From: Christensenellaceae bacterium
GTDB lineage: Bacteria; Bacillota; Clostridia; Christensenellales; CAG-138
Reading direction: 5' to 3'
Assembly (NCBI GenBank): GCA_963667195.1
Contig: OY762962.1
Location: forward strand, 1,048,883 to 1,112,882
DNA: 64,000 nt
The notes beneath the pieces are model-generated. The model saw only the letters and a list, made by a program, of their open reading frames with translations, had not been told where the DNA came from and did not search any database. The first letter of the stretch is position 1. The number at the start of each line of letters is the position of its first letter. The position numbers were made by a program, and so were the translations under genes. This document shows positions 5,031-53,406 of this stretch, piece after piece.

Positions 5031-5052
5031 TTAGGTGTGCCCGAAAGAATTC
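5031..5052 (-). repeat. partial direct copy of the tRNA-Arg 3' end (att-like)
   Basis: ttaggtgtgcccgaaagaattc here versus tttggcgtgcccgaaaggattc at 5217-5238. That is 19/22 identical, including an exact 11-mer, and it sits on the G+C boundary. Confidence 0.6.
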
Positions 5053-5179
5053 CTCCGCTTTTCCGTCCACTACTCGCTCACACCGCTCGCAGTTTGGCCG
5101 GCTGCGCTCCGCCTGCCGCCAAAAACGCCGACACCGCGGCGTTTTCTTCACGCGGCTCCGAATCCTCTCGAACGATATG

Positions 5180-5221
5180 CCAAAGCCAAAGACCACCCGT
5201 TTGGGTGGTCTTTGGCTTTGG
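5180..5221 (-). other. 19-bp perfect hairpin abutting and overlapping the CCA end of tRNA-Arg
   Basis: CCAAAGCCAAAGACCACCC-gttt-GGGTGGTCTTTGGCTTTGG. There is no U-run on either strand, so it is not a classical terminator. Confidence 0.6.
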
Positions 5222-5295
5222 CGTGCCCGAAAGGATTCGAACCTTCGACCCTCAGAGTCGGAGTCTGATACTCTATCCAGCTGAGCTACGGGCAC
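5219..5295 (-). tRNA. tRNA-Arg (anticodon CCG), CCA encoded
   Basis: The reverse complement folds as a cloverleaf. The acceptor is GTGCCCG/CGGGCAC, the anticodon stem TCAGA/TCTGA with loop CTCCGAC, and the T-arm contains GGTTCGAATCC. Length 77 nt. Confidence 0.9.
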
Positions 5296-5366
5296 ACAGG
5301 ATATGCGATTTTCTCGTGAAAACCCGCGTTGTTGCGGGGGATTTTCCCGCAAAGACGCGAAGCAGA

Positions 5367-6719
5367 TTATACCACAGGTTTCTTCTCGTAGCAATAGGCG
5401 ATCGCCTCGCCGATGGTTGCGACGGGCACGAGCTTGAGCCCCGCAATCTTCGGCGCCTTGGCGGATTTCGGCAGCAGCACGGTGTCGTAACCCAGCCGCA
5501 CGCACTCGTTAAGCCGCGTCTCAATCCGGCTTAATGCGCGCACCTCGCCCGTGAGCCCCACCTCGCCAAGCGCCGCTGTACGCGGCGGAAGCGGCAGATC
5601 CATCATCGCGGAAGCGACGCAGAGCGCAACCGCAAGGTCGGTGCTCCGCTCGTCGAGCCTGAGCCCTCCCACCACGTTGAGGTAGACGTCCTTGGTCGAG
5701 AGCCGCAGATGCGCCTTCTTTTCCAGCACGGCGAGCAACAGGCTCAGCCTTCCCGTATCCACGCCCGCGCTCGTTCTGCGTGGATTGCCAAACGCGTTGT
5801 CGGTGAGTAGAGACTGCACTTCCGCGAGAATCGGGCGCGTGCCCTCCATCGCGCAGGTGACGCAGCAGCCGGGCGCAATTTCGCCGGAGAGAAACAGCCG
5901 CGAAGGATCGGCAACCTCGCGCATGCCGCCGTCGCCCATCTCAAACACGCCAACCTCGTTGGTGGAACCAAAGCGGTTCTTCACCGCGCGCAGCAGGCGC
6001 AATCCCTCATGCCGGTCGCCTTCAAAATACAGTACCGTGTCCACGATGTGCTCCAGCACGCGCGGGCCCGCGATGTTTCCGTCCTTGGTCACGTGGCCTA
6101 CGATCAGCACGATCACGCCGGTTTCCTTGGCGTATCGCGTGAGCCGCGCGGTTGCCGCGCGCACCTGACTGACGCTCGCGGGCGCTCCCGCGCTCTCCTC
6201 GGAGATGATCGTTTGAATCGAGTCCACGATCAGCACGCTGCAACGCGCGTTGGTCGCCTCGTCGATGATCTGGTCAAGATCGGTTTCGCAGAGCACGTCG
6301 ATATCGTTCTTCATACCGAGGCGGTCGGCGCGCATCTTGATTTGGGACGCGCTCTCCTCGCCCGAGACATACAAAACGACGCCGTCTGCCGCGAGCGTAT
6401 CCGCCGCCTGCAAGAGAAGCGTCGATTTTCCGATGCCGGGATCGCCGCCAAGCAGTACCACCATGCCGCGGATGAGTCCGCCGCCGAGCACGCGATCCAG
6501 CTCGCTCATGCCCGCGGAGATTCGCTTTTGCGGCAGCGGCACCACCTTGCTGAGTTTTTGCGAAACTGCGGTTCCCGCGGGCGCGCTATTTTTCACCTTG
6601 ACCTCGGCAAACTCGGTCATGGTGTTCCAGCTGTCGCACTGCGGGCATTTGCCCATCCACTTGGCGGACTCGTAGCCGCATTCGCCGCAGATATAGGTGA
6701 CGCGATCCTTATTCGCCAT
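5367..6719 (-). CDS. radA: DNA repair protein RadA/Sms
   Basis: N-terminal zinc ribbon (CGECGYESAKWMGKCPQCDSWNT), Walker A motif GDPGIGKST and a Lon-like C-terminal domain; 450 aa. Confidence 0.95.
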   Translation of the reverse strand: MANKDRVTYICGECGYESAKWMGKCPQCDSWNTMTEFAEVKVKNSAPAGTAVSQKLSKVVPLPQKRISAGMSELDRVLGGGLIRGMVVLLGGDPGIGKSTLLLQAADTLAADGVVLYVSGEESASQIKMRADRLGMKNDIDVLCETDLDQIIDEATNARCSVLIVDSIQTIISEESAGAPASVSQVRAATARLTRYAKETGVIVLIVGHVTKDGNIAGPRVLEHIVDTVLYFEGDRHEGLRLLRAVKNRFGSTNEVGVFEMGDGGMREVADPSRLFLSGEIAPGCCVTCAMEGTRPILAEVQSLLTDNAFGNPRRTSAGVDTGRLSLLLAVLEKKAHLRLSTKDVYLNVVGGLRLDERSTDLAVALCVASAMMDLPLPPRTAALGEVGLTGEVRALSRIETRLNECVRLGYDTVLLPKSAKAPKIAGLKLVPVATIGEAIAYCYEKKPVV

Positions 6720-6720
6720 A

Positions 6721-7878
6721 TCAGTCGCTCACCCGGATGTATTTCCAGAGGATTTGATTTGGATCGCTCAGATCGCGCCAGAGGGCGTAATCCTCGCCCG
6801 CCATGACGAACTGCGCGTTGGAACCCGTCTCGCTGATGAGGTATGTTTTATCGTCCGCAAAGACGTAGGCATACACCGTTTCGTCGCGGCTGAATACCAC
6901 GCAGCTCTGCGTGATGTCAAAGTCGATCACGCCGCTGGCAATCTTCTTGGGTGCGCCGCCGCCAACGCTGACGTAGAGGTCGCTGTTTGCGTCGTGGTTT
7001 CCGCTGAGGTATGCCCAACGGTCGCCCGCGCTCTTGGGATCATGCACAAAGCTGCCCGCCGAGAAGTCCCAGCGGCTGTTATCGGAGAGCAGTACCGTGC
7101 GAATCAGGCTGCTGCCGGGGTTCTTCATGTCCGCGTCCGCATAGATCACCTGTCCGCTCTTGATCGAGGGCGCGCTCTCGGCATAGGCTGGGCTGTTGAG
7201 CACCGCAAGGGTGAGCAGTTCTCCGCTCGTCACGTCGCAGACCATCACCTTCGCGGTGGAGCCGTCGGTGCGCTCCGTCCAGACCGCGTAGGGCGATTCA
7301 AACAGGATCTTCGGGGTCTCCAGCGCATATTCCGCCAGGACCGCGGTCTCTCCCGTCGCTTTGTCGAGCTTGATGATGCTGCCGCCGCCCGCCGTCTTGC
7401 AGTCCGCGTACAGAATCACACTCTCGTTCTCCACGGGATAGCGAATCGTGTCGTTGAGGCGCGTGAGCGCGATGTTGGTAAACGCGCCCGTCTCGGGATT
7501 GAGGCGAACGAGCCTGTCGCAGGCGTTTTCGCTGGCGCCCGTCGCAAAGAGAATCTCACCCGCAAACACGCTGGGGTCGACCACCGCGGTGGGCAGCCCG
7601 TACCCTTCGCCGAACTGCACCGTCTTGACCTCGCGTGTCAAAATCGCGTTCTGCGGAGCGGAGGTCTTCCCGGCGGGCTCCGATGCGGGAGCGGCGCTGC
7701 CAAAAAGCGGCGCGCCGGATTCAATCCGCGCGTTGACGAGCGGCATTGCGACAAACACCACGAGCAACACGAGGGCAGCCAGCACACAAAGAGCGATGAT
7801 GAGCTTGATCAGCGGCCCATAACTCGTCGCGTCCAGATTCACCCTGCGTTTCGGGGTATAACTTAAGTTCTTATTCAT
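6721..7878 (-). CDS. signal-anchored hypothetical protein (beta-propeller-like), translationally coupled to radA
   Basis: N-terminal TM segment (LIKLIIALCVLAALVLLVVFVAM) followed by a repetitive beta-rich domain. Its stop TGA is 1 nt from the radA ATG. The start is uncertain (7878, 7896 or 7923). Confidence 0.6.
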   Translation of the reverse strand: MNKNLSYTPKRRVNLDATSYGPLIKLIIALCVLAALVLLVVFVAMPLVNARIESGAPLFGSAAPASEPAGKTSAPQNAILTREVKTVQFGEGYGLPTAVVDPSVFAGEILFATGASENACDRLVRLNPETGAFTNIALTRLNDTIRYPVENESVILYADCKTAGGGSIIKLDKATGETAVLAEYALETPKILFESPYAVWTERTDGSTAKVMVCDVTSGELLTLAVLNSPAYAESAPSIKSGQVIYADADMKNPGSSLIRTVLLSDNSRWDFSAGSFVHDPKSAGDRWAYLSGNHDANSDLYVSVGGGAPKKIASGVIDFDITQSCVVFSRDETVYAYVFADDKTYLISETGSNAQFVMAGEDYALWRDLSDPNQILWKYIRVSD

Positions 7879-8110
7879 ACGTTTCACGCCTTTCATTTTA
7901 CCGCACGCGCGAGGCCCGGTCAACGAAAGAAAGCGTGAACGAATGCCGAAGCGCGCGCGAATCGGCGCGATTTTTCAGCGCTTGTGATTCGTGCTTTTGT
8001 GCGCCTACAAAATATGGTATCATGATGGATAATGATATACGCTGAAATCAAAAGATTCTCAACGTCGTCATAGTGTTTTTACCCGAATTCATCCAAAAAG
8101 GAATTTTTCA

Positions 8111-9862
8111 ATGGCTTACCGCGCGCTCTACCGCCAATACCGCCCGACCCGCTTTGCCGATGTCATCGGGCAGGAGCACATCACAACCACACTGCGAAAT
8201 CAGGTGTCGTCGGATCGTCCGGCGCACGCCTATTTGTTCTGCGGCACGCGCGGCACGGGCAAAACCACCTCGGCGCGCATTCTGGCGCGCGCGGTCAACT
8301 GCCTCAGCCCCGAGGACGGCGAACCCTGCGGCAAATGCGAAGCATGTCTGATCACGGCAAGTGAGGGCGCTTCCGACATCACCGAGATCGACGCCGCGAG
8401 CAACAACAGTGTCAACGACGTGCGCGATCTCATCGAAAACGCGCAGTACGCGCCGCTCAATCTGCGCCGCCGCGTGTTCATCATCGACGAGGTGCATATG
8501 CTTTCGGGCGCGGCATTTAACGCGCTTCTTAAAACGCTTGAAGAGCCGCCGGAGCACATTCTCTTCATCCTCGCGACCACCGAGCCGCAGAAGCTGCCGG
8601 CTACGATCATCTCCCGCTGCCAGCGGTTCGATTTTCACCGGCTTTCAATGACAGACCTGAAAAAGACGCTCAAGAGCGTGCTGTCCCAGGCGGGCGCGTC
8701 GATCGAAGACGGCGGGCTCTCGCTGATTGCGCGCGCGGCGCAGGGCGGCATGCGCGATGCGCTGTCCCTCGCCGACCAGTGCCTCGCGTTCTGCGGAGAC
8801 AACGTGACCACGCAAAACGTCTACGACGTGCTGGGTAGCATGGAGGACGCGTTTTTATTCGATATGTCAAAGGCGCTGCTCGCCTCCAACGCACCGGACG
8901 CGCTGAGAAAGCTCGATTCCATCATGCAGGCGGGACGCGACCTTTCCGTCTTTGCCGCCGATCTCGCGGCGCATTTCCGCGCGCTGCTGCTGGCTAAGAC
9001 CTGCGGCAGATGCGAGGATTTATTGGACTGCACCGAGGACGAGATGACGCGCTATCTGGAGCAAGCCAAGGGTGCCTCCGAAGCGCGGCTGATGCTCGCG
9101 GTGGATCGCCTGATTGCGGCGCAAAACGACATGCGGTATCTGCCATCTCCACGCGCGCTGCTGGAAAGCGCGCTCATCCACATCTGCCGGCCGGAGGATT
9201 CCGTTTCGCTCGCGAATCTCGAATCGCGGCTCGACCGTCTGGAAGCGCAGATGAAGGATGGAATTCCGGCACAGGTTCCCGCAAAACAGAGCAGTGTGGA
9301 TGCACCTGCGGTGCAAGCCGCAAAGAAGGCGGAGCCAAAGCCCGCAAGGCAGGAACAGGCGCAGGACGAAGCCCCTTGGGCAGACCTGACCCCGCCGCCG
9401 GAAGATTGGCAGCCGGGCGAGACGTTTACCCCGCCTCCGCAGGAACCCGCGCCAAAGCCCGCGGCAACGCCCGCTCCCGCCGCAGCAAAGCACGAAACCA
9501 AACAGGAGGCGCACGCCGCCGCGCAGAAAGCAACGGCCGCGGCCGGTGCTTCCGGCGATCCCGCGGTGATCTGGCGCGAGGCGATTGCGAACATTCCCAA
9601 TATGTTCGTGCAGGCGCTGGCGAGGGAAGCGGTCGCTCTCCACTTTGAGCAAAACGCGCTGACGGTCGGATTCACCGAAGCGCAGGAGATGAAGCACAAG
9701 AGCCTTTCCGCGCCGATCAACTTTGAGCCGACACAGCGAGCATTGCAGATGGTCAAACCCGACGCAAAGCTCGTGATCACGACGACAAAAGCAGCCCCCG
9801 CAAGCGGACAGGCAGAAGAACTCGCCAAAGCGCTGTTCGGGGACAAACTCACGATACAGTAA
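8111..9862 (+). CDS. dnaX: DNA polymerase III subunit gamma/tau
   Basis: MAYRALYRQYRPTRFADVIGQEHI..., Walker A motif GTRGTGKTT and a zinc module CGKCEAC, with a Pro/Ala-rich linker; 583 aa. Confidence 0.95.
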   Translation: MAYRALYRQYRPTRFADVIGQEHITTTLRNQVSSDRPAHAYLFCGTRGTGKTTSARILARAVNCLSPEDGEPCGKCEACLITASEGASDITEIDAASNNSVNDVRDLIENAQYAPLNLRRRVFIIDEVHMLSGAAFNALLKTLEEPPEHILFILATTEPQKLPATIISRCQRFDFHRLSMTDLKKTLKSVLSQAGASIEDGGLSLIARAAQGGMRDALSLADQCLAFCGDNVTTQNVYDVLGSMEDAFLFDMSKALLASNAPDALRKLDSIMQAGRDLSVFAADLAAHFRALLLAKTCGRCEDLLDCTEDEMTRYLEQAKGASEARLMLAVDRLIAAQNDMRYLPSPRALLESALIHICRPEDSVSLANLESRLDRLEAQMKDGIPAQVPAKQSSVDAPAVQAAKKAEPKPARQEQAQDEAPWADLTPPPEDWQPGETFTPPPQEPAPKPAATPAPAAAKHETKQEAHAAAQKATAAAGASGDPAVIWREAIANIPNMFVQALAREAVALHFEQNALTVGFTEAQEMKHKSLSAPINFEPTQRALQMVKPDAKLVITTTKAAPASGQAEELAKALFGDKLTIQ

Positions 9863-9956
9863 CTGTAATTGTTATATAGTAAGTAAAGATAAATTCAGCA
9901 CGATACAGTAAATACAATAGTTAATAAGTAAAGATATTTTCAGGAGGAACTTTTTT

Positions 9957-10304
9957 ATGGCAAAAGGCGGATTTCCCGGCGGAATGGGCGGTATGGGCGG
10001 CGGCAACATGCAGCAGCTCATGATGAAAGCGCAGAAGATGCAGCAGGACGTGGCGCGCGCGCAGGCGGAGCTCAACGAGCGTGAGTTTGTCGCGAGCAGC
10101 GGCGGCGGCATGGTAACCGTCACCGTCACCGGCAACAAGGACGTGAAAGCCATCGTCATCAACCCCGCGTGCGTCGATCCCGACGACGTGGAGATGCTGC
10201 AAGACCTCGTGCTTAGCGCGGTCAACGAGGCACTCCGCACCGCGACCAAGACCGTTGAGGACGAAATCGGCAAGATCACGGGCGGTCTGGGGCTCGGCCT
10301 GTAA
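9957..10304 (+). CDS. ybaB: YbaB/EbfC family nucleoid-associated protein
   Basis: 115 aa with a Gly/Met-rich N-terminus and the canonical position between dnaX and recR. A GGAGG RBS precedes it. Confidence 0.9.
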
Positions 10305-12855: not shown

Positions 12856-13088
12856 GGTATCCGCGTATCGGGTCTGTGGTTGAAAATCGATGCCAGTCGC
12901 AGGCAAAACGATCCACGTAAGCGGGCAAAGCCCCGTGAGCATGGTGCGGTCTAGAAGTAAGTCCAACCGAAGCATATCTAAAACATGCATTTCGAGAGAG
13001 GCAGTAGTGAGAGGCACATCGCCGGGTAGCGACACTTCCAGTTGGCGGGTGTGGGGGCAAAAACCAGGTCAGCCGGCACTCGGGTATC
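12856..13088 (+). ncRNA. candidate structured RNA (6S-like rod architecture, or a long 5' leader of the zinc-ribbon gene); family unassigned
   Basis: A ~395-bp gap with no convincing ORF and its own promoter. The 5' arm 12856-12881 pairs with the 3' arm 13062-13088: GGUAUCCG with CGGGUAUC, UCGG with CCGG, CUG with CAG, UGGUU with AACCA. Internal helices include GCAUG 12939-12943 with CAUGC 12984-12988. No terminator precedes the CDS at 13125. Confidence 0.35.
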
Positions 13089-15216: not shown

Positions 15217-16542
15217 TTATTGCGCATTGGTATTGATCAAGGGCAATATCTGCTCGATTGCCCCGGGCACCACGCTCACAATATCAATGCCGACGAACGT
15301 CGAACCACGCCGGTAGGTAAACAGCATCCCAATCACGCCGGTAGTCCCTTTTCGATCATCGAACCGATAGACGTAGCAATCTTGTCCCAAAACGGTTTCG
15401 CGGCTGAACGAGCCGTTCAGTACATCGACCTTGCCATCCTTGTCAAAGTCAAACAACCAAGGAAGAAGGGTGTCAAAGAAATCCCTGCCGGATACCGAGT
15501 CCATCCAGTTCCCGGTGGAATTCGCCGTGTAGATGAACACCATGTGCTGTATGTCTTTCTCGTAGCCGCAATACTCCAAGTCAAGATTGCCGTCCTTGAG
15601 AAAGTCCCGATATGCTTTGTTGCGCGCGTCCTCACCCGTCTCGCTCACAGTGACTTTGTTAAATTCGTCCAGCGTCTCGCGATTGTAGTATTCCCATCCA
15701 GCCGGACTGTCAAACTTCAGACCAAGGAACGCGCTGTCAAATCCTTTCTCTCCGATTTGCGGCATGCTGTAAGATTCGATGGAAGGATAGTCGCTGTATT
15801 GATAGAGGCTGTCGATCACATCCTGCAACATTTGTTCGCTCGGGCACATCAAATTGACATATGCAAACGTGCTATCCTTCTGAACGGCAAACAGCGCGCA
15901 ATAGCCGTATGCCGCATCCATGGGCAGTTCAAAGCGGGTCATCGGATGTTCGGTGTCTCCGAGCTTGATCGTATCCTTTCGAATATTCAACGCGTCGATC
16001 GTCCCGTCACTGCCAATGTCGCAAATCGAGGCAGCGTAGGCATCCACCGCTTCCTGTTCGGACAGAACCCCCGTTCCGTTATCCGAATTATCCTTGAGCA
16101 GGACGAGTATCATTTCGTTCGCGGATTTATTGTATCCAACATAATCATAGATGGTTTGTCCGTTCTTCAAGAGCGTTTGATATTCCTTTAAATACGCTTC
16201 CGCATTGCTCCCATCTGCCTTGATCATGTTTAGTAGATCGATATAGCTGCGATTGTAGGCCTTCCAACCATCGGGCAAGCGAAAGCCGAGGTCGAAATAC
16301 TTGCTCAAATAGCCAGTATCGTCACCTACACCCAATGAAAAGGAATCGACGTTCGGTTCCGGCGTTGGCGCGGGCGTCGGCGTTGGCGTGGGTGACGGTG
16401 TTGGCGTCGCGGTCGGCGTCGGACTTGGCGTCGGCGTAGGCGAAATCAGCTGCGCAAGGTCAGCGCAGCCAGTGAATGTAGCGAGCATGAATACCGCCAT
16501 CACCAGCGCGATGACGGTTTTGGTTCGATTGTACGTTTGCAT
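15217..16542 (-). CDS. lipoprotein with Pro/Thr linker and two tandem copies of an uncharacterised domain
   Basis: Start ATG at 16542 behind AAAGGAGAAAAA. Signal peptide and lipobox ...LATFTGC, with a PT-rich linker (about 16356-16446). Two homologous halves: FSLGVGDDTGYLSKYFDLGFRLPDGW... and GFDSAFLGLKFDSPAGW... Confidence 0.8.
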   Translation of the reverse strand: MQTYNRTKTVIALVMAVFMLATFTGCADLAQLISPTPTPSPTPTATPTPSPTPTPTPAPTPEPNVDSFSLGVGDDTGYLSKYFDLGFRLPDGWKAYNRSYIDLLNMIKADGSNAEAYLKEYQTLLKNGQTIYDYVGYNKSANEMILVLLKDNSDNGTGVLSEQEAVDAYAASICDIGSDGTIDALNIRKDTIKLGDTEHPMTRFELPMDAAYGYCALFAVQKDSTFAYVNLMCPSEQMLQDVIDSLYQYSDYPSIESYSMPQIGEKGFDSAFLGLKFDSPAGWEYYNRETLDEFNKVTVSETGEDARNKAYRDFLKDGNLDLEYCGYEKDIQHMVFIYTANSTGNWMDSVSGRDFFDTLLPWLFDFDKDGKVDVLNGSFSRETVLGQDCYVYRFDDRKGTTGVIGMLFTYRRGSTFVGIDIVSVVPGAIEQILPLINTNAQ

Positions 16543-16622
16543 TTTTTCTCCTTTGATATGACAAGCTGCAGGCGATGCTGCCGCCCTGCACGCTTGCGCA
16601 AGGCGGCAACCGCCATGATGGA

Positions 16623-17390
16623 TTATTTCACCACGTAGAAGGTCTTGAGAATTCCGTCGATGGTCGCGGGATCGACGGCGTCGATGATGATCATCGCAAA
16701 CGTTGTGCCCTGTTTGAGCACGAAGAACGCGCCGTTCATCTGCTTGCCGTTCGACTTCATGTCGTAGCGGTAGACGGGATGCTCCGTGCCGAGCAGATCG
16801 GTCACGACGAGCTTGAGGTTCTTCGCGTCGGATTTTGAATCGCCGTTGTAATCCGTCGCCCAAGTTTGCATCGCCTGCATGACCGCAAACTCGGTGTGCT
16901 GTGCCGATCCTTCGGAAGTGTAATCCAGCAAAATGATCATCATGTAATCATCGCCTTCATACGGCATCGCATAGAGATCATACACGAGCTTGCCCTGTTT
17001 GAGCATGTCGATGTATTCCTGAGTGATCACGGACGTGCTCTTTCCCGTCGTGTCGATTTCGTTCACGAGGTTCATCTGGTCCGGCGTATAGAGATACCAG
17101 TTATTCGGCGCGGGAAATCCGAAGCGGAAGTAGCTGTTGTAGTAACCATTCGGCCCGCCAAAGCCGAGCTTGAGAGAATCGACCGTCACCGCCGGAGTCG
17201 GACTCGGCGTAGGGCTCGGTGTGGGCGTGGGTGTCGGTGTCGGCGTCGGCGTCGGGGTCGGCGTCGCGGTCGGGGTTGCGGTCGGCGTCGGCGTTGGCGA
17301 AATTGCCTGCATGATCTCCGCGCAGGCGGTAAGCGACAGCATGCTCGCGAGCGCGAGCAGCAGCGCGATCGATCGGGTCAAGCGTTTCAT
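16623..17390 (-). CDS. lipoprotein paralog (single domain) with Pro/Thr linker
   Basis: RBS AGAGGAGAA, lipobox LSLTAC and a 36-aa (T/S)P linker. The domain begins LKLGFGGPNGYYNSYFRFGFPAPNNW. Confidence 0.8.
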   Translation of the reverse strand: MKRLTRSIALLLALASMLSLTACAEIMQAISPTPTPTATPTATPTPTPTPTPTPTPTPSPTPSPTPAVTVDSLKLGFGGPNGYYNSYFRFGFPAPNNWYLYTPDQMNLVNEIDTTGKSTSVITQEYIDMLKQGKLVYDLYAMPYEGDDYMMIILLDYTSEGSAQHTEFAVMQAMQTWATDYNGDSKSDAKNLKLVVTDLLGTEHPVYRYDMKSNGKQMNGAFFVLKQGTTFAMIIIDAVDPATIDGILKTFYVVK

Positions 17391-17427
17391 ACGTTCTCCT
17401 CTATCTTTCTCGTTCAAAAGCCACAGA

Positions 17428-18171
17428 TCACGCTGTCATCGGCTGGAACATCGCGAGGAGCTCCGCCGTGTGATCCACGCCGACGGAGCTGACGTAGACG
17501 TTCATCATATAATCACCCTGTTGGAAGATGACCTGCGCGTCATACGTCGTGTATCCGCCGCTGTCGTAAGAGAAGAACCAACAGGACTGCTCTTTTCCAA
17601 GGAACATCGTCGTGGTGTGCTCGTCGCGCACGATCTCGGCTCCGGCACCGGTGAGCGCCTCGCGGATCAGCTTGATGTTCGCTTCGTGATAGTCCGCAAC
17701 GCTGCTAAACGCTGTCATCGCGTTCTTCGCGTCGCTGACGATAACGCTGATCTCCGCAAGCCCCGTGTTTAGGTGCGCGCTGTACTCCTGAACCGGCAGA
17801 CCCTTCGGCAGATAATCGAGGTATTCCGACTGGCGCAGATCCTTGGGAATCTCCATCGGGAAGCTGCTGAGGGTGTCCAGCTCGGCACTGGTGGCCACAA
17901 ACCATTTGTCGTTGAGATCGATTTTCATGTTGAAATACTCGTTTTGATAGGATAAACCCGTGCTCAATCCAAATGTGATCGGGTAGATTTCACGATAGGG
18001 TGTGGGGCTCGGCGTGGGCTCCGGCGTCGGCGTTGGCGCAAGGGTTGGCGTCGCCGTCGGCGTCGCGGTCGGCGTGGGTTCGATGATTGCCGTGATGCTT
18101 TGACAAGAGACAAGCGTGAACCCTGTGAGAATACACAACAGTAATGCGATGATTCTTTTTCGAAGCTGCAT
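17428..18171 (-). CDS. lipoprotein paralog (single domain) with Pro/Thr linker
   Basis: RBS GGGAGG, lipobox TLVSC and a PT linker. The domain begins ITFGLSTGLSYQNEYFNMKIDLNDKW. Confidence 0.8.
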   Translation of the reverse strand: MQLRKRIIALLLCILTGFTLVSCQSITAIIEPTPTATPTATPTLAPTPTPEPTPSPTPYREIYPITFGLSTGLSYQNEYFNMKIDLNDKWFVATSAELDTLSSFPMEIPKDLRQSEYLDYLPKGLPVQEYSAHLNTGLAEISVIVSDAKNAMTAFSSVADYHEANIKLIREALTGAGAEIVRDEHTTTMFLGKEQSCWFFSYDSGGYTTYDAQVIFQQGDYMMNVYVSSVGVDHTAELLAMFQPMTA

Positions 18172-18310
18172 AGTGCCTCCCGGACGCGTTTTCTCCACTT
18201 TAGCACAGTAAAACGGTATATACAAGTAAAATAACAGCGCTGTGTATAATATTCTATTGCACAATATCCCGGCGCTTCTCCGCCGCCAACGCGCCTGTAC
18301 TGTGCGTACA

Positions 18311-18386
18311 CAAAAAAAGCTCCCCCAAATGGAGGAGTTTTGCTGGTAGCGTTGGGTCGCGTTACGCGAATGCGTGATAGATGGCC
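18311..18386 (-). repeat. displaced copy of the lysC 3' end (last 8 codons plus stop) and terminator
   Basis: The reverse complement encodes AIYHAFA*, identical to the lysC C-terminus with one synonymous change (GCA versus GCG). A CTCCTCC/GGGGGAG hairpin and T7 run are retained. Confidence 0.85.
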
Positions 18387-19661: not shown

Positions 19662-19737
19662 CAAAAAAAGCTCCTCCGAATGGAGGAGCTTTGCAGGTTG
19701 CGTTGGGTCGCGTTACGCGAACGCGTGATAGATGGCC
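19662..19737 (-). repeat. gene-proximal copy of the 76-bp repeat (functional lysC 3' end plus terminator)
   Basis: Contains the lysC stop codon and the perfect hairpin AGCTCCTCC-gaat-GGAGGAGCT, followed on the minus strand by T7. Confidence 0.85.
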
Positions 19738-22432: not shown

Positions 22433-22538
22433 AGTCTTTCTTACCCCTCTTACACTTTGTTATTTATGGTCTGCCGCATCCGGTCGCTCCTCCGGTTGCT
22501 AAGCGGCATAGTTCCGCTGTTATAAACGTAATGCGGGT

Positions 22539-22567
22539 ATTATACCTTATATTTTTTTTGCTTTCAA
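22539..22567 (-). promoter_or_regulatory. sigma-70-type promoter for DUF1015-lysC
   Basis: On the minus strand: TTGAAA (22567-22562), a 17-nt spacer, then TATAAT (22544-22539). Confidence 0.55.
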
Positions 22568-22648
22568 TAATATCTGTCGCAATTTCGGACGTTTTGCAGA
22601 TTTATTCGATATATCTGCATATTACGCAAAACATATGTCGAAAACCCT

Positions 22649-22693
22649 TTATTCTCCGAGCGTTGCGACCATGACTGCCTTGATCGTATGCAT
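22649..22693 (-). repeat. displaced copy of the argF 3' end (last 14 codons plus stop)
   Basis: 42/45 identical to 22734-22778. Both copies translate to [14 protein letters not shown]. The three differences are all synonymous (GCA/GCG, CTC/CTG, GAA/GAG). Confidence 0.85.
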
Positions 22694-22701
22694 GCACTTC
22701 T

Positions 22702-22726
22702 ATATATATTTTTTTAAAATATATAT
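22702..22726. repeat. perfect all-A/T palindrome between the two argF 3'-end copies
   Basis: ATATATATTTT-ttt-AAAATATATAT (11-bp arms). Confidence 0.85.
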
Positions 22727-22733
22727 CTATAAA

Positions 22734-39492: not shown

Positions 39493-39500
39493 GTACCACC

Positions 39501-40766
39501 ATGCAATTTGTCGATAAAGCGCGCATCGTCGTCAAGGCCGGCAACGGCGGAGACGGGCACGCCTCCTTCCACCGCGAAAAATATGTGCAGCAGGGCGGCC
39601 CGGACGGCGGAGACGGCGGACGCGGCGGCGACCTCGTGTTTTTTGCCGATCCGCAGATGTCCACGCTGCTGGACTTCAAGTATCAGCGCTTTTACCGCGC
39701 GGAAAACGGCGAGCCGGGCAAAGCCGAGCTCAGCACGGGCAAGAACGGCAAGCCACTCGTGATTCGCGTACCCGTCGGCACCATTGTGCGGGACGTGGAA
39801 AGCGGCGCAATCCTCGCCGACATGAGCGAGGCGAACAAAGAGCGCATCATCCTTCGCGGCGGACGCGGCGGCAAGGGCAACGCAAAGTTTGCAACGGCAA
39901 CCCATCAGGCGCCGAGATTTTCCCAGCCGGGCATCAAGACCACGGAATATGAAGTGGAGCTGGAGCTCAAGTCGATTGCGGACGTTGGCCTCGTGGGGCT
40001 GCCATCCGTCGGAAAATCGACCATCCTCTCCGTGCTCACGGCGGCAAAGCCGAAGATCGCGGCGTATCACTTCACGACGCTCTCGCCAAACCTCGGCGTG
40101 GCCTCCCGCCACAACCGCTCGTTTGTGCTCGCGGATATCCCCGGCCTCATCGAGGGAGCTGCGGAAGGCGCGGGACTGGGTCACGACTTCCTGCGGCACA
40201 TTGAACGCACGCGCATGCTGGTGCACGTGGTCGATATCGCGGGCAGCGAGATGCGCGATCCCATTGAAGATTTTCAGAAGATCAACGACGAGCTGACGAA
40301 GTTTTCTCCGCTTCTGGGCGAGATTCCGCAGCTGGTCGCGGCAAACAAGACCGACCTGCCCGAGTCGGAAGAAAACCTCGCAAAGTTTAAGGAAGCGTAT
40401 CCGAACGTGGAGGTGTTCCCCGTTTCGGCGGTCACCGTGCAGGGCTTTGAGGCGCTGCTCGATCGCGTGGTGCAGGTGCTCGATACCCTGCCGCCCGTGC
40501 TGCGATACGAGGAGACGGATCTCGTCGAAACCTCCAGCTATGAAGCGGGCTTCCACATCGAGCGCGGCGACGACGGCGTGTTTGACGTTACCGGCGGCGA
40601 TGTAGAAAAGCTGCTCGATTCCACCGACCCGGACGACGACCTCTCCATGCGCAGATTCCAGCAGATGCTGGTCAAGAACGGCATCATTGCGGCGCTGCGC
40701 GAGATGGGCGCGAAGGACGGCGACAGCATCCGCCTCGGCGAATGGGAGTTTGACTTCCTCGACTAA
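39501..40766 (+). CDS. obg: GTPase Obg/CgtA
   Basis: MQFVDKARIVVKAGNGGDG..., G1 motif GLPSVGKST and a C-terminal OCT/DUF1967 domain; 421 aa. Confidence 0.95.
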   Translation: MQFVDKARIVVKAGNGGDGHASFHREKYVQQGGPDGGDGGRGGDLVFFADPQMSTLLDFKYQRFYRAENGEPGKAELSTGKNGKPLVIRVPVGTIVRDVESGAILADMSEANKERIILRGGRGGKGNAKFATATHQAPRFSQPGIKTTEYEVELELKSIADVGLVGLPSVGKSTILSVLTAAKPKIAAYHFTTLSPNLGVASRHNRSFVLADIPGLIEGAAEGAGLGHDFLRHIERTRMLVHVVDIAGSEMRDPIEDFQKINDELTKFSPLLGEIPQLVAANKTDLPESEENLAKFKEAYPNVEVFPVSAVTVQGFEALLDRVVQVLDTLPPVLRYEETDLVETSSYEAGFHIERGDDGVFDVTGGDVEKLLDSTDPDDDLSMRRFQQMLVKNGIIAALREMGAKDGDSIRLGEWEFDFLD

Positions 40767-40829
40767 ATCCGGCGCGAGCTGAACTGGTACAAAACAAGAG
40801 AATATTGGATGCGAAAGGCGGTATCGAAG

Positions 40830-41255
40830 ATGGAGCAAGTAGCACGAATCAGCATTACCGTCGAGACGACGGTGCCCGTTTCGCCGGAGTTGGCGTGGGA
40901 ATATTGGACAAAACCCGCGCACATCACCCAGTGGAATCAGGCCTCCGACGACTGGCACACGCCGCGTGCGGAAAGCGATCTTCGCGCGGGCGGCGCGTTC
41001 AGCTCTCGTATGGAGTCCAAGGATGGCAAATACGGCTTCGACTTCGGCGGCATTTTCGACACGGTGGAACCGCCTCGCCTTCTCGCCTACACGATCGGAG
41101 ACGGGCGCAAGGTTCAGGTTACGTTTGAGTCCGTCGCGTCCGGCACGCATATCGTCGAAACGTTTGAGGCGGAAGGCGAAAACTCCGCCGAGCTCCAGCG
41201 CCAAGGCTGGCAGGCAATCATGGACAGCTACCGCAAATACGTCACAAAACAATAA
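40830..41255 (+). CDS. SRPBCC (AHSA1/START-like) domain protein
   Basis: 141 aa; ...ITVETTVPVSPELAWEYWTKPAHITQW... is typical of the Aha1-like SRPBCC fold. Confidence 0.8.
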   Translation: MEQVARISITVETTVPVSPELAWEYWTKPAHITQWNQASDDWHTPRAESDLRAGGAFSSRMESKDGKYGFDFGGIFDTVEPPRLLAYTIGDGRKVQVTFESVASGTHIVETFEAEGENSAELQRQGWQAIMDSYRKYVTKQ

Positions 41256-41270
41256 CGAATTCACGCAAGC

Positions 41271-41317: not shown

Positions 41318-42208
41318 TCAGTAATCGATTCTAAAATAGTCCAGATATTTCTTGAACTGATCCTGCGCGGCAACGCAGGTTTCCCGCAGGTAGCCCCGCT
41401 CTTCTGGCCAGTTTTGCAGCCCGCGATAATAAAACATCTTGAGTTCATCGCCGATAATGAACGGGACAATGTTGTTGCGTAGGCATTCCTTGAACAAAAT
41501 CAGCCGGCCCACGCGCCCGTTTCCGTCCTGAAACGCGTGAATCCGCTCAAACCGAGCATGAAAGTCGAGAATGTCGTCCAGCGTTTTATTCGGGATGGCA
41601 TTATATACATGCAATAGCTTCTTCATCTCGTCCGAAACATCTTCCGGCGCGGTGGTCTGTTTACCGCCGACCTCGTTTGGCAGCCTCTTATAGCCGCCGA
41701 CGGCAAACCAGCTCTTGCGCGCGTCGCTCGTGCCGCTCTTCAGCGTCAGGTGCAGTTGCTTGATGAAATTCTCGCTCAGCGTGGCATTCGCCTGATCGAT
41801 GACACGATCGATACAGCGAAAGTGATTCGCGGTCTCCACGATATCGTCCACGTTGACGGAACCGCTGTCGGCTCCGATGGTGTTCGTCTCAAAGATATAG
41901 CGCGTCTGATCCTGCGTGAGCCTGCTTCCCTCTATGCGGTTGGAGTTGTAGGTCAGCTCAATCTGAACTTTGTGGTAGATGCCTCCGGGGAGATGCGCTT
42001 CCTTCTCCGCCCGGAGCCGATGCAGCAGCGTTTCCGGCGCGCTGTTCCGTTTGTTTACGCGCTCCGGCCGCTGTGCGCTTTCGGGAATGCTCCACGTCTT
42101 GCCCACGAGAAACGCTTGCGGAATCTTGCCGTTCGCGCAATAATTGCGCACCGTGCGCTCCGCAATACCCCAGCGCTTAGCCGTTTCCGCTACGGAAAGA
42201 TAGTTCAT
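41318..42208 (-). CDS. Fic family protein with N-terminal HTH DNA-binding domain
   Basis: HTH region YLSVAETAKRWGIAERTVRNYCANGKIP, inhibitory-type motif SNRIEGS and Fic motif HAFQDGNGRVGR. RBS GAAGGAGG upstream. Confidence 0.85.
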   Translation of the reverse strand: MNYLSVAETAKRWGIAERTVRNYCANGKIPQAFLVGKTWSIPESAQRPERVNKRNSAPETLLHRLRAEKEAHLPGGIYHKVQIELTYNSNRIEGSRLTQDQTRYIFETNTIGADSGSVNVDDIVETANHFRCIDRVIDQANATLSENFIKQLHLTLKSGTSDARKSWFAVGGYKRLPNEVGGKQTTAPEDVSDEMKKLLHVYNAIPNKTLDDILDFHARFERIHAFQDGNGRVGRLILFKECLRNNIVPFIIGDELKMFYYRGLQNWPEERGYLRETCVAAQDQFKKYLDYFRIDY

Positions 42209-42246
42209 GCCTCTCGCCTCCTTCATATACGTTCATCATAACACGT

Positions 42247-42310: not shown

Positions 42311-42682
42311 TTACTTTTGTATTTCCCGGCGGATCAGCTCCTGCGCGATTGCAAACGCGCGAAGTCTGCGTACCGCGAGGGTGTGCTGCGGCGTGCCCTC
42401 GGCGAACTTCGGCAGTACGGATTCCACGCGAACCGAGGCAAACGCGAAGGCTTCGCTCGCCTGATTGAGGGATTCCAGTGAGAATTTAACCTCTTCGCCA
42501 GAGTCACCTTGCTCCCGCGCGATGAGTTGGAGCGCAAGCGAATATGCCGCGATGCCGCGCGCGGTCAGGCGGTGTTGCGCGGTGCCGTCCTTGAGCTTGA
42601 GAATTGCTTTTTCGCTCTTCATCCGCGTGGAGTCAATCGCCCGCGCGGCCTCGGAAAGTTCCTCTTTCGAAAAGACTTCCAT
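42311..42682 (-). CDS. hypothetical protein with an internal duplication
   Basis: 123 aa, RBS GGGAGG. The two halves share ...K(L/F)(K/A)(D/E)GT(A/P)QH(R/T)L(T/A)(A/V)R...A...A..LI.RE. Confidence 0.6.
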   Translation of the reverse strand: MEVFSKEELSEAARAIDSTRMKSEKAILKLKDGTAQHRLTARGIAAYSLALQLIAREQGDSGEEVKFSLESLNQASEAFAFASVRVESVLPKFAEGTPQHTLAVRRLRAFAIAQELIRREIQK

Positions 42683-42736
42683 GCGTTCCTCCCGTTGAAA
42701 AAGCCCGCCGTAAAAGGCGGGCAAGTTGTGTGTTTG

Positions 42737-50705: not shown

Positions 50706-51332
50706 TTACAATTTGATTTTCCGCACAATGCTCTTCATAAGCTTCGAATTGTTCTTAAACCTATTACTATAAAAAATGAAACTCTTTTTTAGTTCATCTG
50801 ACGGTTTTCTTTCGTAAACAATATCACCATAGTCGCTTAGTAAAGAAAGCACATACTCAGTATAGCTATCTTTTAACCATTCCAATTCTGACCTAATTGG
50901 TTCTGGAAATAAAGGACATCCCTTTGTTAACACTAAAGCTTGGGAAACAAGATGATTGCGTAATTTGTGCACATCACGTTGTATTGCTTCTTTGGTTATT
51001 TCTTGCGGTTCCTTTCCAGGATATGGTATAAAACTGATTTCGTCTTTGAGGCCACCGTCATGAACTTGTGCCACTGCCCATGCTTTTAATTCGGGGTCGC
51101 TTCCGAGGGTTTCTATTTCGAGTTTATTTGTTGTGATTTCATCGGAAAAATTCAGAACAATGCCCAAGCATTCAAGAACAACGAATCTCTTGTCAAATAA
51201 TGCGATTTTATTCTGCCTTTCTGCTGTGCTCACGGCGATGATGACAGCAATAACTGATAAAAGAAAAGTTATACCGGTCGCAAAATAGTCAAACAAATCT
51301 CGTTGTATTGTTACAAAATACATATCGCTCAT
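50706..51332 (-). CDS. orphan hypothetical protein with N-terminal TM (very low G+C)
   Basis: 208 aa with TM segment ITFLLSVIAVIIAV. Spot G+C is about 30%. It has its own small terminator AAGCAA-tt-TTGCTT. No family was recognised. Confidence 0.6.
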   Translation of the reverse strand: MSDMYFVTIQRDLFDYFATGITFLLSVIAVIIAVSTAERQNKIALFDKRFVVLECLGIVLNFSDEITTNKLEIETLGSDPELKAWAVAQVHDGGLKDEISFIPYPGKEPQEITKEAIQRDVHKLRNHLVSQALVLTKGCPLFPEPIRSELEWLKDSYTEYVLSLLSDYGDIVYERKPSDELKKSFIFYSNRFKNNSKLMKSIVRKIKL

Positions 51333-51460: not shown

Positions 51461-51500
51461 GCAAAACCAGCGCCCCCCTGCGGGCGCTGGTTCCTTTTTT
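51461..51500. terminator. GC-rich bidirectional terminator (probable original hutI terminator)
   Basis: AACCAGCGCCC-(6 nt)-GGGCGCTGGTT, flanked by an A-run and a T-run. Confidence 0.7.
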
Positions 51501-51508
51501 CTATTCCC

Positions 51509-51597
51509 CTACCCCACAACAACCTTCCCCCGCTTCACAACCGCTTTCACCTGATTATTGCCCATGCGGTAGCAGAGCGGTTTCAGCCCGTCTTCAG
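51509..51597 (-). pseudogene. displaced, diverged copy of the hutI 3' end (about 29 codons plus stop)
   Basis: The reverse complement reads ...AEDGLKPLCYRMGNNQVKAVVKRGKVVVG*, versus the intact hutI C-terminus ...NADGMELICYRMGSNQVKAVVKRGKVVVS*. I counted 66 of 90 nt identical. It is in frame, with the stop at the equivalent position. Confidence 0.75.
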
Positions 51598-51603
51598 CGC
51601 TAC

Positions 51604-52074
51604 TCAAATATTCTCCATCTCATCCGCAAGGCAGATCATCTCCTCGCAAAACGGCGAATACGGGCGCAGATGCTCATAGTTTCGGGAAAAGCGCAGGCGC
51701 GGATCAATCAATTGAATCAGACGGTTGGTCGCGTCCTCGTTGAGGTGCTTGCAGACATAGCGCGTGTCCAATCCCAAGCGATTGCATGCCTCGAGCGTCG
51801 GGCAAAAATTCTGCGAGTGGAAGACGATCTTCGTCCCATCGCCAAATACGATCGGCGCTTCGTCGGACGTGATGCCAAAGCGCGCAAGCAGCAAGGCGTA
51901 CGCCGCGCGCACAGGATCGTCCGGCAAGCGCGCAAACCGGTCTCTGTTCTGCTCAAACCAGGCTGTTCTGCGCCGGATCGAATCCTCGTTGAGTGCGCAA
52001 AGTGCGGCCCCGTCCGTGTCGCGCAAACGCGCCATCTCACGCTGAATCAACGCCTCGCATTCTTCTGCGTTCAT
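51604..52074 (-). CDS. small Cys-rich protein inserted between hutI and its displaced 3' end; possibly ATC-hydrolase-like (PF14196-like Cys pattern, low certainty)
   Basis: 156 aa from MNAEECEALIQ... with RBS GGGAGGTGA. Contains FCPTLEACNRLGLDTRYVCK...PFCEE. It is preceded by a hairpin plus T-run (GCAATCC...GGATTGC) just after the hutI stop. Confidence 0.65.
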   Translation of the reverse strand: MNAEECEALIQREMARLRDTDGAALCALNEDSIRRRTAWFEQNRDRFARLPDDPVRAAYALLLARFGITSDEAPIVFGDGTKIVFHSQNFCPTLEACNRLGLDTRYVCKHLNEDATNRLIQLIDPRLRFSRNYEHLRPYSPFCEEMICLADEMENI

Positions 52075-52173
52075 ACCGTAATCACCTCCCGAAAAATCAT
52101 TGGAGTGTAACACACCCAAAATGAAAACGCAATCCCCCAACTTGCTCGGAGGATTGCGCTGAGAACCCATTCT

Positions 52174-53406
52174 TTATGAAACGACGACCTTTCCCCGCTT
52201 GACCACTGCCTTCACCTGATTGCTGCCCATGCGGTAGCAGATCAGCTCCATGCCGTCCGCATTCCAAAGGGTCAGGTCGGCTTGCTTGCCGAGCTCGACG
52301 GAGCCAAGACGTTCGCCGAGGCCGATTGCGCAGGCGGCGTTGAGCGTCAGCGCGGTGAGGGTTTCCTCCGGTGTCATGCGATAGCGCAGGTACGCGAGGT
52401 TTGCAGAGAGCTGGAGGTTCAGCGACGGGCACGAGCCAGGGTTAAAATCGGAGGCCACCGCCACCGCGACGCCGCGAGAGATCATCTCCCGCGCGCGGGC
52501 GAAGTTTTTGTTGAGGTAGAGCGAGGTCTGCGGCAGCAGGCACGCGGTGACGTTGCCCGCGGACAGCGCAGAGATGCCGCTGTCGTCCGTCGCGATCAGG
52601 TGCTCCGCAGAGATTGCGGAAAGTTCACCCGCGAGAACCGCTCCGCCGATGGCGTCGATCTCGTCCGCGTGAATCTTGAGCCCAAAGCCCAGAGAACGTG
52701 CGGTTTCCAGCACGCGCCTGCTCTGCGCCACGGAGAACACACCCGTTTCGCAGAACACATCGCAATATTGCGCGAGGTTCTCCTCCACCACACGCGGCAA
52801 AATCTCGCCGCAAACGACGTCCACATACGCGTCCGTGCGCCCGGCATACTCCGGCGGAACCGCGTGCGCGGCCATACAGGTTGCGACGACGTCCATCGCG
52901 TGCGACTCGTTCAGGCGGCGGATCACGCGGAGCTGCTTGCACTCATGCTCCAAATCCAGCCCGTAGCCGCTCTTGATCTCCGTCGTAGTCACGCCAAAGC
53001 GCAGCTGCTCGTCGAGAAACGCGCTCGCGCGCGCAAACAGCGCGTCCTCGTCCAACGCGCGCGTCTGGCGCACGGTATCGAGAATGCCGCCGCCCGCTTG
53101 CAGAATCTCAAGATAGCTCGCGCCCTTGAGCTTGAGCGGAATCTCGTGCTGCCGCCAGCCGCCAAAGACGAGGTGCGTGTGCGCGTCCACCCAGCCGGGC
53201 GTGACGAACGCGCCGCCCGCATCCAGCCGGGTTGTGTCCGGCGGGCAAGGCAGCAAAGCGTCGTCCTGCGTGATCGCGACGATGGTTTCGCCGTCGATGA
53301 GCACGCTGGCGTTGCGATACTTCATGTTTTCACCCTGCGCGGTTCCCCGCAGGCTCGTGCTGCCGACGGGGGTTTGCAGGAGGCCGATGTTGTGGATGAG
53401 GAGCAT
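52174..53406 (-). CDS. hutI: imidazolonepropionase
   Basis: Amidohydrolase fold with VTPGWVDAHTHLVFGG...; 410 aa. It is the last gene of the hut cluster. Confidence 0.95.
   Translation of the reverse strand: MLLIHNIGLLQTPVGSTSLRGTAQGENMKYRNASVLIDGETIVAITQDDALLPCPPDTTRLDAGGAFVTPGWVDAHTHLVFGGWRQHEIPLKLKGASYLEILQAGGGILDTVRQTRALDEDALFARASAFLDEQLRFGVTTTEIKSGYGLDLEHECKQLRVIRRLNESHAMDVVATCMAAHAVPPEYAGRTDAYVDVVCGEILPRVVEENLAQYCDVFCETGVFSVAQSRRVLETARSLGFGLKIHADEIDAIGGAVLAGELSAISAEHLIATDDSGISALSAGNVTACLLPQTSLYLNKNFARAREMISRGVAVAVASDFNPGSCPSLNLQLSANLAYLRYRMTPEETLTALTLNAACAIGLGERLGSVELGKQADLTLWNADGMELICYRMGSNQVKAVVKRGKVVVS

Follow-up and report, generated by a model that had tools for sequence, protein, structure and literature searches.

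Duplicated gene ends behind metabolic genes of a Christensenellaceae bacterium as possible old scars of gene-end replacement

We analysed a 64,000-nucleotide stretch of DNA from a Christensenellaceae bacterium (assembly GCA_963667195.1, contig OY762962.1, positions 1,048,883 to 1,112,882), called the window below. Four of its protein-coding genes, lysC, argF, arcA and hutI, and a tRNA-Arg(CCG) gene are each followed by extra sequence that repeats their own 3' end. Comparison with related genomes revealed that at lysC, argF and hutI the added DNA consists of a working gene end and a cargo, placed upstream of the resident gene end. The overall explanation we favour, tentatively and at somewhat less than an even chance, is that the repeats are old scars of gene-end replacement with a recombinase-free origin. 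They are a known kind of scar with variant features: the ends of housekeeping genes are involved, a recombinase is lacking, some cargos are tiny, repeats have been homogenised over long times and several sites occur in one lineage. Notable are the density of scars in this lineage, the lysC repeats, which recombine around a defence gene, and the fact that no site has an integrase.

The features concerned are listed here by window position. The copy at the end of the live gene is called proximal and the displaced one distal; L numbers denote related loci.

5031-5052, minus strand: displaced tRNA-Arg 3' end (3' half of the T arm and acceptor stem), 164 bp downstream of the gene and identical at 19/22 positions to the gene's 3' end at 5217-5238
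5219-5295, minus strand: tRNA-Arg(CCG) gene (ARAGORN; Rfam tRNA, 65.3 bits)
18311-18386, minus strand: distal lysC repeat, displaced native end; 76 nt, 92% identical to the proximal repeat; its downstream sequence matches L097 and L094
18396-19562, minus strand: fic cargo, a candidate SoFic-type single-gene anti-phage defence gene (Pfam Fic; PADLOC SoFic)
19662-19737, minus strand: proximal lysC repeat, comprising the last 24 coding nt, stop codon, spacer and intrinsic terminator of the live gene
19713-21029, minus strand: lysC (aspartokinase), intact (Pfam AA_kinase and ACT_9)
22649-22693, minus strand: distal argF repeat, displaced native end, ending in GAATAA as in single-copy relatives
22694-22733, minus strand: argF spacer, a 40-nt A/T-rich palindrome, ATATATATTTT-AAA-AAAATATATAT, the sole argF cargo
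22734-22778, minus strand: proximal argF repeat, the last 45 nt of argF, 93% identical to the distal repeat
22734-23729, minus strand: argF (ornithine carbamoyltransferase), intact (Pfam OTCace_N and OTCace)
23760-24356, minus strand: 198-aa open reading frame (ORF) of unassigned function between arcA and argF; 68% GC at third codon positions (GC3)
24454-24583, minus strand: arcA array, three copies of the 27-nt gene end (stop codon included) with two near-identical 24-nt hairpin spacers at a 51-bp period (Tandem Repeats Finder: 51-bp unit 2.5 times, score 225, 93% matches)
24557-25765, minus strand: arcA (arginine deiminase), intact (Pfam ADI, E = 2e-115)
51509-51597, minus strand: distal hutI copy, a displaced native end (...KVVVG type) with a terminator of its own behind it
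51604-52074, minus strand: hutI cargo, encoding a conserved hypothetical protein of 156 aa that matches nothing in Pfam, NCBIfam or PADLOC
52174-52263, minus strand: proximal hutI repeat, the last ~90 nt of the gene
51516-51592 and 52181-52257, minus strand: the hutI repeats as aligned, 77 nt at 81% identity
52174-53406, minus strand: hutI (imidazolonepropionase; Pfam), last gene of the hutH-hutU-FTCD-hutI operon, protein ending in ...KVVVS

The original prediction, made from the letters of the window, had named these five repeat sets, and inspection of the minus-strand sequence of the five regions found each of them at the coordinates first claimed; for hutI the alignment just given replaces an earlier count of ~66/90 identical positions. 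In a self-BLAST of the whole window, the lysC, argF, arcA and hutI repeats were the top four direct repeats that are not of low complexity, with E-values, in descending order of significance, of 2e-28, 7e-25, 4e-12 and 5e-11. The only other significant direct repeats were (CGGCGT)n coding repeats in paralogous ORFs at 16.3-18.1 kb. A targeted scan of all gene ends of the window found no further end duplication, 3' or 5'. As predicted, each displaced coding copy in the window retains its reading frame and stop codon, and 7/7 coding differences between the copies of lysC, argF and arcA are synonymous. Pfam likewise agreed that integrases, transposases and reverse transcriptases are missing, since none of these domains, nor any resolvase domain, was found among the ~57 ORFs of the window. 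The prediction had also pointed to the location of all sites on one strand. This is true but hardly informative: about 44 of the 57 window genes (77%) lie on that strand, the leading strand by GC skew, and five of five sites on the majority strand has p ~0.27.

Orthologous loci were compared from at least 12 related species, represented by metagenome-assembled genomes that their submitters labelled Christensenella sp., Eubacteriales or Clostridia. The loci were gathered by looking for Fic protein homologues and by scanning metagenomes with the DUF1015 protein; for the hutI site, L172 and L173 came from homologues of the 156-aa protein and L174 from a chimeric hutI query. A scan of a genome collection with argF gave a best match of 74% amino-acid identity, and those 80 loci served as the background set. 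The relatives have the gene order arcA-(198-aa ORF)-argF-DUF1015-lysC-(fic) in common, at 77-95% nucleotide identity. L097 is the window's sister (lysC 95%), L081, L103/L098 and L090 form a second clade (clade II), L127, L087, L091-93, L170 and L171 are more distant, and L094, L095 and L099 are outgroups. In the gene tables returned for the related loci, no recombinase (integrase or transposase) and no reverse transcriptase is listed at the lysC, argF, arcA or hutI sites.

At argF, six species (L081, L087, L090, L091, L095 and L098) have a single gene end, which aligns to the window's distal copy and the leader downstream of it. By this alignment, the distal copy is the native end. It continues into the conserved DUF1015 leader, and relative to the single-copy loci L081 and L087 the window has exactly 85 bp extra, namely the proximal 45 nt and the palindrome. 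The palindrome is unique in that it belongs to no repeated family, and the argF spacer has no relationship to what follows the distal copy (spacers compared with downstream sequence, p = 0.13-0.65). The window-type insertion is also carried by L097 and L094, where the A/T spacer is homologous and the proximal copy ends in GAGTAA. Their distal copies have decayed, with A>V and M>L changes in L097 and a lost stop codon, four amino-acid changes and 7 non-synonymous changes in L094. L127 has another cargo, a 112-nt spacer with two hairpins resembling repetitive extragenic palindromes (REP), and its proximal copy ends in ...GD, TGA; its two copies differ at 7/45 positions, with 6 synonymous changes and 1 non-synonymous.

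Several further observations concern the argF region. The left boundary of the duplication is the centre of a perfect 16-bp palindrome, ATCGTATGCATACGAT (22757-22772). The duplicated segments of arcA and argF each start at an in-frame ATG, creating the mini-ORF MSMPLWRE (24557-24583) and one of 14 residues (22734-22778); this is probably a coincidence. The DUF1015-lysC operon has a leader of ~215 nt (22433-22648, minus strand), also present in L081, L087, L090, L091, L094, L095, L097, L098, L127 and L170, which is 90-100% conserved among species that differ by 10-20% elsewhere. It contains a promoter, TTGAAAGC-N17-TATAAT, and then a nested hairpin, GCCGC..CCGG-AGGAGCGA-CCGG..GCGGC, in which one pair is changed from C-G to U-A in 5/12 sequences. 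The leader has no Rfam match even at E <= 1 and is a candidate for an unnamed cis-regulatory RNA. REP-like GC-rich hairpins (e.g. GTAGGGGCGGATACCATCCGCCC and CAAAGGGGCTTTGCCCCTTTGG) occur in intergenic spacers of relatives (L127 2461-2572; L101 9040-9268; L094 1827-1982; L099 6890-7191), including the L127 argF and L101 lysC spacers.

At lysC, the fic promoter lies directly after the lysC terminator, an arrangement found in each fic-bearing relative whose context was checked, and the distal repeat begins 9 nt past the fic stop codon and doubles as the fic terminator. The fic product matches the PADLOC SoFic profile with E = 1.3e-53 (residues 50-368 on profile positions 52-356 of 361); against NCBIfam SoFic it reaches only 49 bits at a cut-off of 550 and is thus not an equivalog. 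We regard the gene as a candidate SoFic-type defence gene. Its composition is foreign to the genome, with a GC3 of 58% compared with ~80% in core genes. The insertion is old and inherited, because fic sits after lysC in every fic-bearing relative checked (six species or assemblies), with protein identity down to 66%. The gene is absent from L097 and L103, both nested among fic-bearing lineages. In L097, the lysC terminator leads into the sequence found behind the window's distal repeat; in L103, it leads into the sequence found behind the fic terminator of L081, with a junction within the terminator repeat. The L097 junction is also consistent with a position inside the repeat. L094, an outgroup without fic, has a promoter and a small ORF right after the lysC terminator, and in L087, L171 and L092 the same promoter and ORF follow the distal repeat. 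This placement in L094 shows that the distal lysC copy is the native end.

The two lysC repeats have not evolved independently. They are 95% identical in L092, 93% in L087, 92% in the window and 84% in L171; in L170 they are ~64-72% identical with an indel and non-synonymous changes, and in L081 and L090 only the terminator hairpin is common to both ends. The two copies in each genome are mutual closest relatives, with species-specific spacers and amino-acid changes in common; in L092, both encode ...NAIYRAFA. Since the copies cluster within genomes, whatever their position, the repeats must have gone on recombining with each other. The window fic is only 68-75% identical in nucleotides to all other fic genes, compared with 84.5% for the comparably related host pair L081/L090, and it is ~12 points more diverged from the clade II fic than host genes predict (72% vs ~84%). 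This extra divergence would fit an exchange of alleles at the lysC site. Phage and plasmid collections contain nothing that matches the fic region, and the lysC terminator is unique, not a repeated element. A distant relative, L101, has a lysC-end repeat with another boundary, 12 nt before the stop codon; in the clade studied here the boundaries lie 24 to ~57 nt before it.

Next to the lysC distal repeat, between it and an M20 peptidase gene, are wedged the three paralogous ORFs with long (CGGCGT)n-encoded repeats (15217-18264, minus strand). They have no Pfam match and are found only in the window and its sister L097.

At hutI, the 156-aa protein belongs to a family of 211 homologues, and its gene lies behind hutI in three species (the window, L172 and L173). 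In L172 it follows hutI without a distal copy. In L173, the 156-aa homologue is flanked on either side by 1.8 kb comprising the hutI end and a 478-aa membrane-protein gene, a direct repeat of 73% identity (2996-4822 and 5531-7369) with intact 478- and 483-aa membrane proteins of 68.5% amino-acid identity; the distal hutI piece there has decayed. L174 (complete genome OW818651.1, GCA_942492885.1) has no hut operon at this place. All that is left there is a truncated piece of hutI, at least 257 nt long, which ends in ...KRGKVVVG and is followed by the same terminator, tRNA-Met and aconitase genes as the window's distal copy, which has its last 23 nt and the downstream terminator in common with this remnant. 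The live hutI end (...VVVS) groups with L172 and L173 (89% and 87% identity, vs 79% to L174). Upstream of the boundary the values are 86% and 85% vs 82% to the L174 remnant, a small margin. The 3' half of the distal copy, a block of 17 codons, differs from the live copy by nine synonymous and zero non-synonymous changes, and its 5' half has decayed. The match to L174 together with this ratio identifies the distal copy as native and as the end of another type of allele that was once functional. The VVVG type is also seen in the L174 remnant and the fragments P0250 and P0254. Short hutI-fragment proteins were considered as further displaced copies and rejected; only L174 is truly truncated, and L175 is a frameshifted operon.

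The hut operon of L175 (1470-7285) is pseudogenised, with hutH in three pieces, hutU not called and hutI split into 333 and 94 aa, which shows that part of the clade is losing histidine utilisation. In L174, tRNA-Arg(CCG) lies ~1 kb upstream of the hutI remnant (8891-10249); the two are 47 kb apart in the window. The difference points to a large rearrangement or deletion bounded by the tRNA-Arg and hutI sites. Just past the distal hutI copy, a 208-aa ORF (50706-51332, minus strand) has a strongly foreign GC3 of 34%, compared with ~80% in the core.

The assignment of the native copy covers lysC, argF and hutI, and arcA has the same layout only. The window has two extra arcA units; L097, L127 and L087 have one each with homologous spacers, L098 has a decayed trace and L081 has none. 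The copies in L087 differ by three synonymous and no non-synonymous changes. The duplication is limited to the sub-clade that has the 198-aa ORF between arcA and argF; in outgroups, arcA adjoins argF or DUF1015. In the window, 2/51 positions differ between units 1 and 2, and the two spacers differ at 2 positions, which points to a recent local amplification. The step from two to three units thus clearly reads as an in-place tandem duplication, and these two units are the only case of head-to-tail repetition of a whole unit including the spacer. A CRISPR-like array or neo-array was rejected at arcA; the spacers are near-identical and homologous across species, and there are no cas genes.

The tRNA-Arg site stands apart. 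Its 3'-end pattern gave 2 matches where 0.01 are expected by chance, and beyond the copy lies a low-GC island of glycosyltransferase and epimerase genes (1-4930; GC3 48-61% vs ~80% in the core). Taken alone, this site is more likely a classical integrase att remnant.

The sites have several properties in common. At arcA, argF and hutI the copies are homologous exactly as far as the stop codon, and at lysC as far as the terminator extends. Over all sites and species, synonymous and non-synonymous differences number 42:26, compared with ~22% synonymous expected for random change, counts that are non-independent through shared ancestry. This bias towards synonymous changes supports the view that both copies derive from once-working alleles, as had been proposed for one copy of each pair; the 6:1 ratio of L127 argF and the 9:0 ratio of the hutI block agree with it. 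A 3'-end replacement that displaces the native end, the core of the original prediction, is borne out at lysC, argF and hutI, where orthologues mark the distal copy as native and the distal copies run into ancestral downstream DNA. Empty sites and alternative cargos, also sought in orthologues, were found: fic is absent from L097 and L103, argF is single in six species, arcA is single in L081 and L127 has the other argF cargo. A general maintenance of the displaced copies did not hold, and dead copies decay in some lineages (stop codon lost in L094 argF, an indel in L170 lysC, decay of L098 arcA and L173 hutI). The density is high, with four sites in the 64 kb of the window vs 0-1 across the 80 diverse argF loci, which total 1.37 Mb. 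Insertions are common to species 10-18% apart, and these comparisons show that they arose before the species diverged and that each is bound to one locus. No common motif or sequence was found among the cargos, which were compared, or the junctions, which were inspected, and no cargo occurs at a second locus in the relatives examined. Among viral contigs, the lysC, arcA and hutI end patterns are absent, and only argF gave a match, L176. A diversity-generating retroelement was rejected; there is no reverse transcriptase, and the substitutions are of all types, mostly synonymous.

For the origin of the scars, a recombinase-free route is plausible, though we would not call it probable: homology-facilitated illegitimate recombination (HFIR) or a comparable repair of breaks on a diverged template. 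DNA from a related genome would bring its own working gene end (the last 24-95 nt) and whatever lay behind the gene in the donor, such as the SoFic-type fic at lysC, the 156-aa gene at hutI, or the 24-nt and 40-nt hairpins at arcA and argF. One end of the incoming DNA would be joined by homologous recombination in the conserved gene and the other by an illegitimate join some tens of bases before the stop codon of the resident gene, which would leave the resident gene end untranslated downstream of the cargo. The comparisons show that the repeats of a site have gone on recombining: the lysC copies have been homogenised, the cargo has been lost with one repeat in some lineages and the arcA unit has gone from one to two to three copies. 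Where recombination ceases, the dead copy decays. Such a route would explain why homology stops at the stop codon at three sites, how a cargo can be 24 nt long, why no integrase is found at the sites and how several genes could be hit in one lineage, and the different lysC boundary of L101 is expected if the joins are not site-specific. We favour HFIR because no integrase is listed, cargos can be as short as 24-40 nt, several genes are involved in the lineage and L101 has its own boundary.

A number of points weigh against this proposal. A donor-type arrangement, e.g. an argF gene with the A/T hairpin behind it and no dead copy, was not found among the loci compared. A donor tract would be expected upstream of the proximal copy; sliding identity from arcA to lysC shows no clear tract, and the profile is uninformative. 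The route would involve DNA uptake, for which the window, the part of the genome covered, contains no competence genes. In HFIR experiments, recipient DNA is reportedly deleted as a rule and not usually duplicated (de Vries & Wackernagel 2002). At lysC, the repeat extends beyond the stop codon through the terminator, and later gene conversion is needed in any model. At argF, the window-type and L127-type insertions have different cargos and proximal ends and the same left boundary (45 nt before the stop codon, ATGCAT), which seems more natural for a site-specific enzyme. Finally, the viral contig L176, from another, low-GC Firmicute, contains a tyrosine-integrase prophage against the argF 3' end: in the prophage fragment (6719-8107, IMG/VR UViG_3300021254_001405), which encodes a tyrosine integrase and CI/Cro-like repressors, the integrase converges on the argF 3' end at the contig end. 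Phages can thus use the argF end as an att site.

These last points keep alive an integrase route, which we consider unlikely but the most serious of the alternatives. In this explanation, temperate phages or integrative elements carried the 3' end of the gene in attP, and the integrase and nearly everything else were later deleted, so that attL, a remnant (fic, the 156-aa gene or 24-40 nt) and attR stayed. The distal position of the native end, the homology up to the stop codon and the mostly synonymous differences are the anatomy of 3'-end-replacing integration, and the partial tRNA-Arg 3' copy beside a low-GC island is the classical case; with the two cargos behind one argF left boundary and the L176 integrase and repressors, they speak for it. 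Fic-type defence genes are also common prophage morons. The fic region, however, matches no phage or plasmid, and the lysC, arcA and hutI end patterns are in no viral contig. Pfam found no integrase in the window, and none is listed at related sites in the returned gene tables despite the variable presence of the cargo, an absence that the recombinase-free route predicts equally. Remnants of 24 and 40 nt would further need deletions that end exactly at attR, and four or five integrase specificities would all have to be gone from one lineage. Tests for an integrated element gave direct repeats of 3' ends, no integrase inside, and empty sites with a shared argF boundary; the empty sites and the shared boundary are also compatible with deletion between repeats and cargo turnover.

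In a variant that we rate as rather improbable, conserved gene ends act as the portable homology arms of a recombinase-free cassette system. Homologous recombination of the host, with no other help, would loop the cargo out as a circle with one repeat, re-insert this circle in the manner of Campbell into any relative with the conserved gene and swap alleles between species. This reading would account for repeats that evolve in concert, for the repeated precise losses, for the discordant fic allele and for a high density of sites, all in the absence of an integrase.

Duplication in place is a still more doubtful origin for the sites as a group. Slippage, template switching or end-joining would have copied the last 27-95 nt with filler, and gene conversion would have kept the copies similar. 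The arcA units of the window, which went from two to three and differ at 2/51 positions, fit this well. Both short spacers are hairpin palindromes, as from snap-back synthesis, the argF boundary lies at the centre of the 16-bp palindrome, and the concerted evolution of lysC demonstrates that conversion happens. Elsewhere the expectation fails: the spacers were not copied from the sequence after the distal copy, whole genes (fic and the 156-aa gene) stand between copies, three sites end exactly at the stop codon, and the synonymous bias of L127 argF and of the VVVS and VVVG types of hutI is unexpected. A simple tandem duplication was rejected on the same grounds, an argF spacer unrelated to downstream sequence and genes between the copies at lysC and hutI. 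In-place duplication would account only for the arcA amplification.

The prediction had gone on to propose a family of very small, trans-mobilised cassettes or an undescribed dedicated mechanism of 3'-end insertion. Empty sites and alternative cargo exist, the density is high relative to other bacteria, and no recombinase is present in cis. An active family of this kind is nevertheless very unlikely: cargos and junctions have no motif in common, no cargo is found at a second locus, the insertions are not recent but common to species 10-18% apart, and displaced copies decay. The empty sites are explained by deletion between repeats, as at the L103 junction inside the terminator repeat. The cargos are unrelated, locus-bound and old, and this part of the prediction was not upheld. 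An assembly artefact, such as strain bubbles linearised into adjacent near-duplicates, might be suspected where copies are adjacent and near-identical, and has a negligible probability because independent assemblies of related species carry identical architectures (L087, L088 and L089; L092 and L093), which recur across assemblies and species with their own sequence differences.

If the recombinase-free route is true, the scars record the addition of accessory and defence genes behind conserved genes by host recombination alone, and a local repeat that spans a stop codon, with the native copy distal, would be a signature of this process in genomes without an integrase. The lysC repeats combine long-term homogenisation of ~80-bp repeats with repeated precise loss of a defence gene, which bears on the turnover of defence islets. 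If the scars are decayed integrase islands, the result is ordinary.

The window has other features of interest. A raiA RNA motif is located at 12863-13081 on the plus strand (Rfam RF03072, 182.7 bits). Another Fic-domain gene (41318-42226, minus strand), whose product has an excisionase-like HTH_17 domain at the N terminus, strongly matches the PADLOC candidate defence family PDC-S04 with E = 2.9e-109, and is flanked by ORFs of unassigned function at 39489-41264 and 42311-42724.

Among the closest known systems is the integration of phage 21 and e14 at icd in E. coli, which replaces the 3' end of the gene. As at icd, the 3' end of the target is present as direct repeats, the imported end is live and the native end lies beyond the cargo, the copies differ mostly synonymously and homology stops at the gene end. 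Unlike icd-type integration and islands at tRNA or tmRNA genes, the sites described here have no integrase or excisionase, can hold cargos of 24-40 nt, show ancient vertical inheritance and include four protein-gene sites in 35 kb. Arrays of repeated gene 3' ends are found in the ssrA islands of Dehalococcoides (PMC3146451). The arcA array and the tRNA-Arg copy resemble such ssrA and tRNA arrays (Dehalococcoides, tycheposons) in having tandem 3'-end copies downstream of a live gene. Those arrays involve kilobase islands and integrases; the arcA spacers are 24 nt long and near-identical, pointing to local amplification.

Islets without a recombinase are known as well. The microcin H47 island of E. 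coli has att-like direct repeats (PMC3191183, PMC5426353), the Salmonella wzy locus has 113-bp attL and attR sites and is lost reversibly (PMC12074656), and streptococcal cis-mobilizable elements (CIMEs) have att-like repeats and no recombinase (PMC5704250). Like these, the sites studied here have one or a few genes between direct repeats of ~100 bp, no internal recombinase, deletion alleles with a single repeat and variable presence. In the published cases, the repeats are intergenic and perfect and excision was shown experimentally, whereas here they include the coding ends of housekeeping genes, are 81-93% identical, and excision is suggested by comparison.

HFIR is known to occur during DNA uptake in Acinetobacter, Pseudomonas stutzeri and pneumococcus. 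In published HFIR the recipient DNA is mostly deleted, unlike the duplicate of the gene end retained here; to our knowledge, such a retained duplicate has not been described as a recurrent signature of HFIR. The process has also been studied in E. coli conjugation (PMC3240628). In common with HFIR and with integrase-free hotspots of gene flux that core genes delimit, the sites in the window would have a conserved gene as the homologous anchor, an illegitimate join at the opposite end, no need of a dedicated recombinase, and room for any DNA that lay downstream in the donor.

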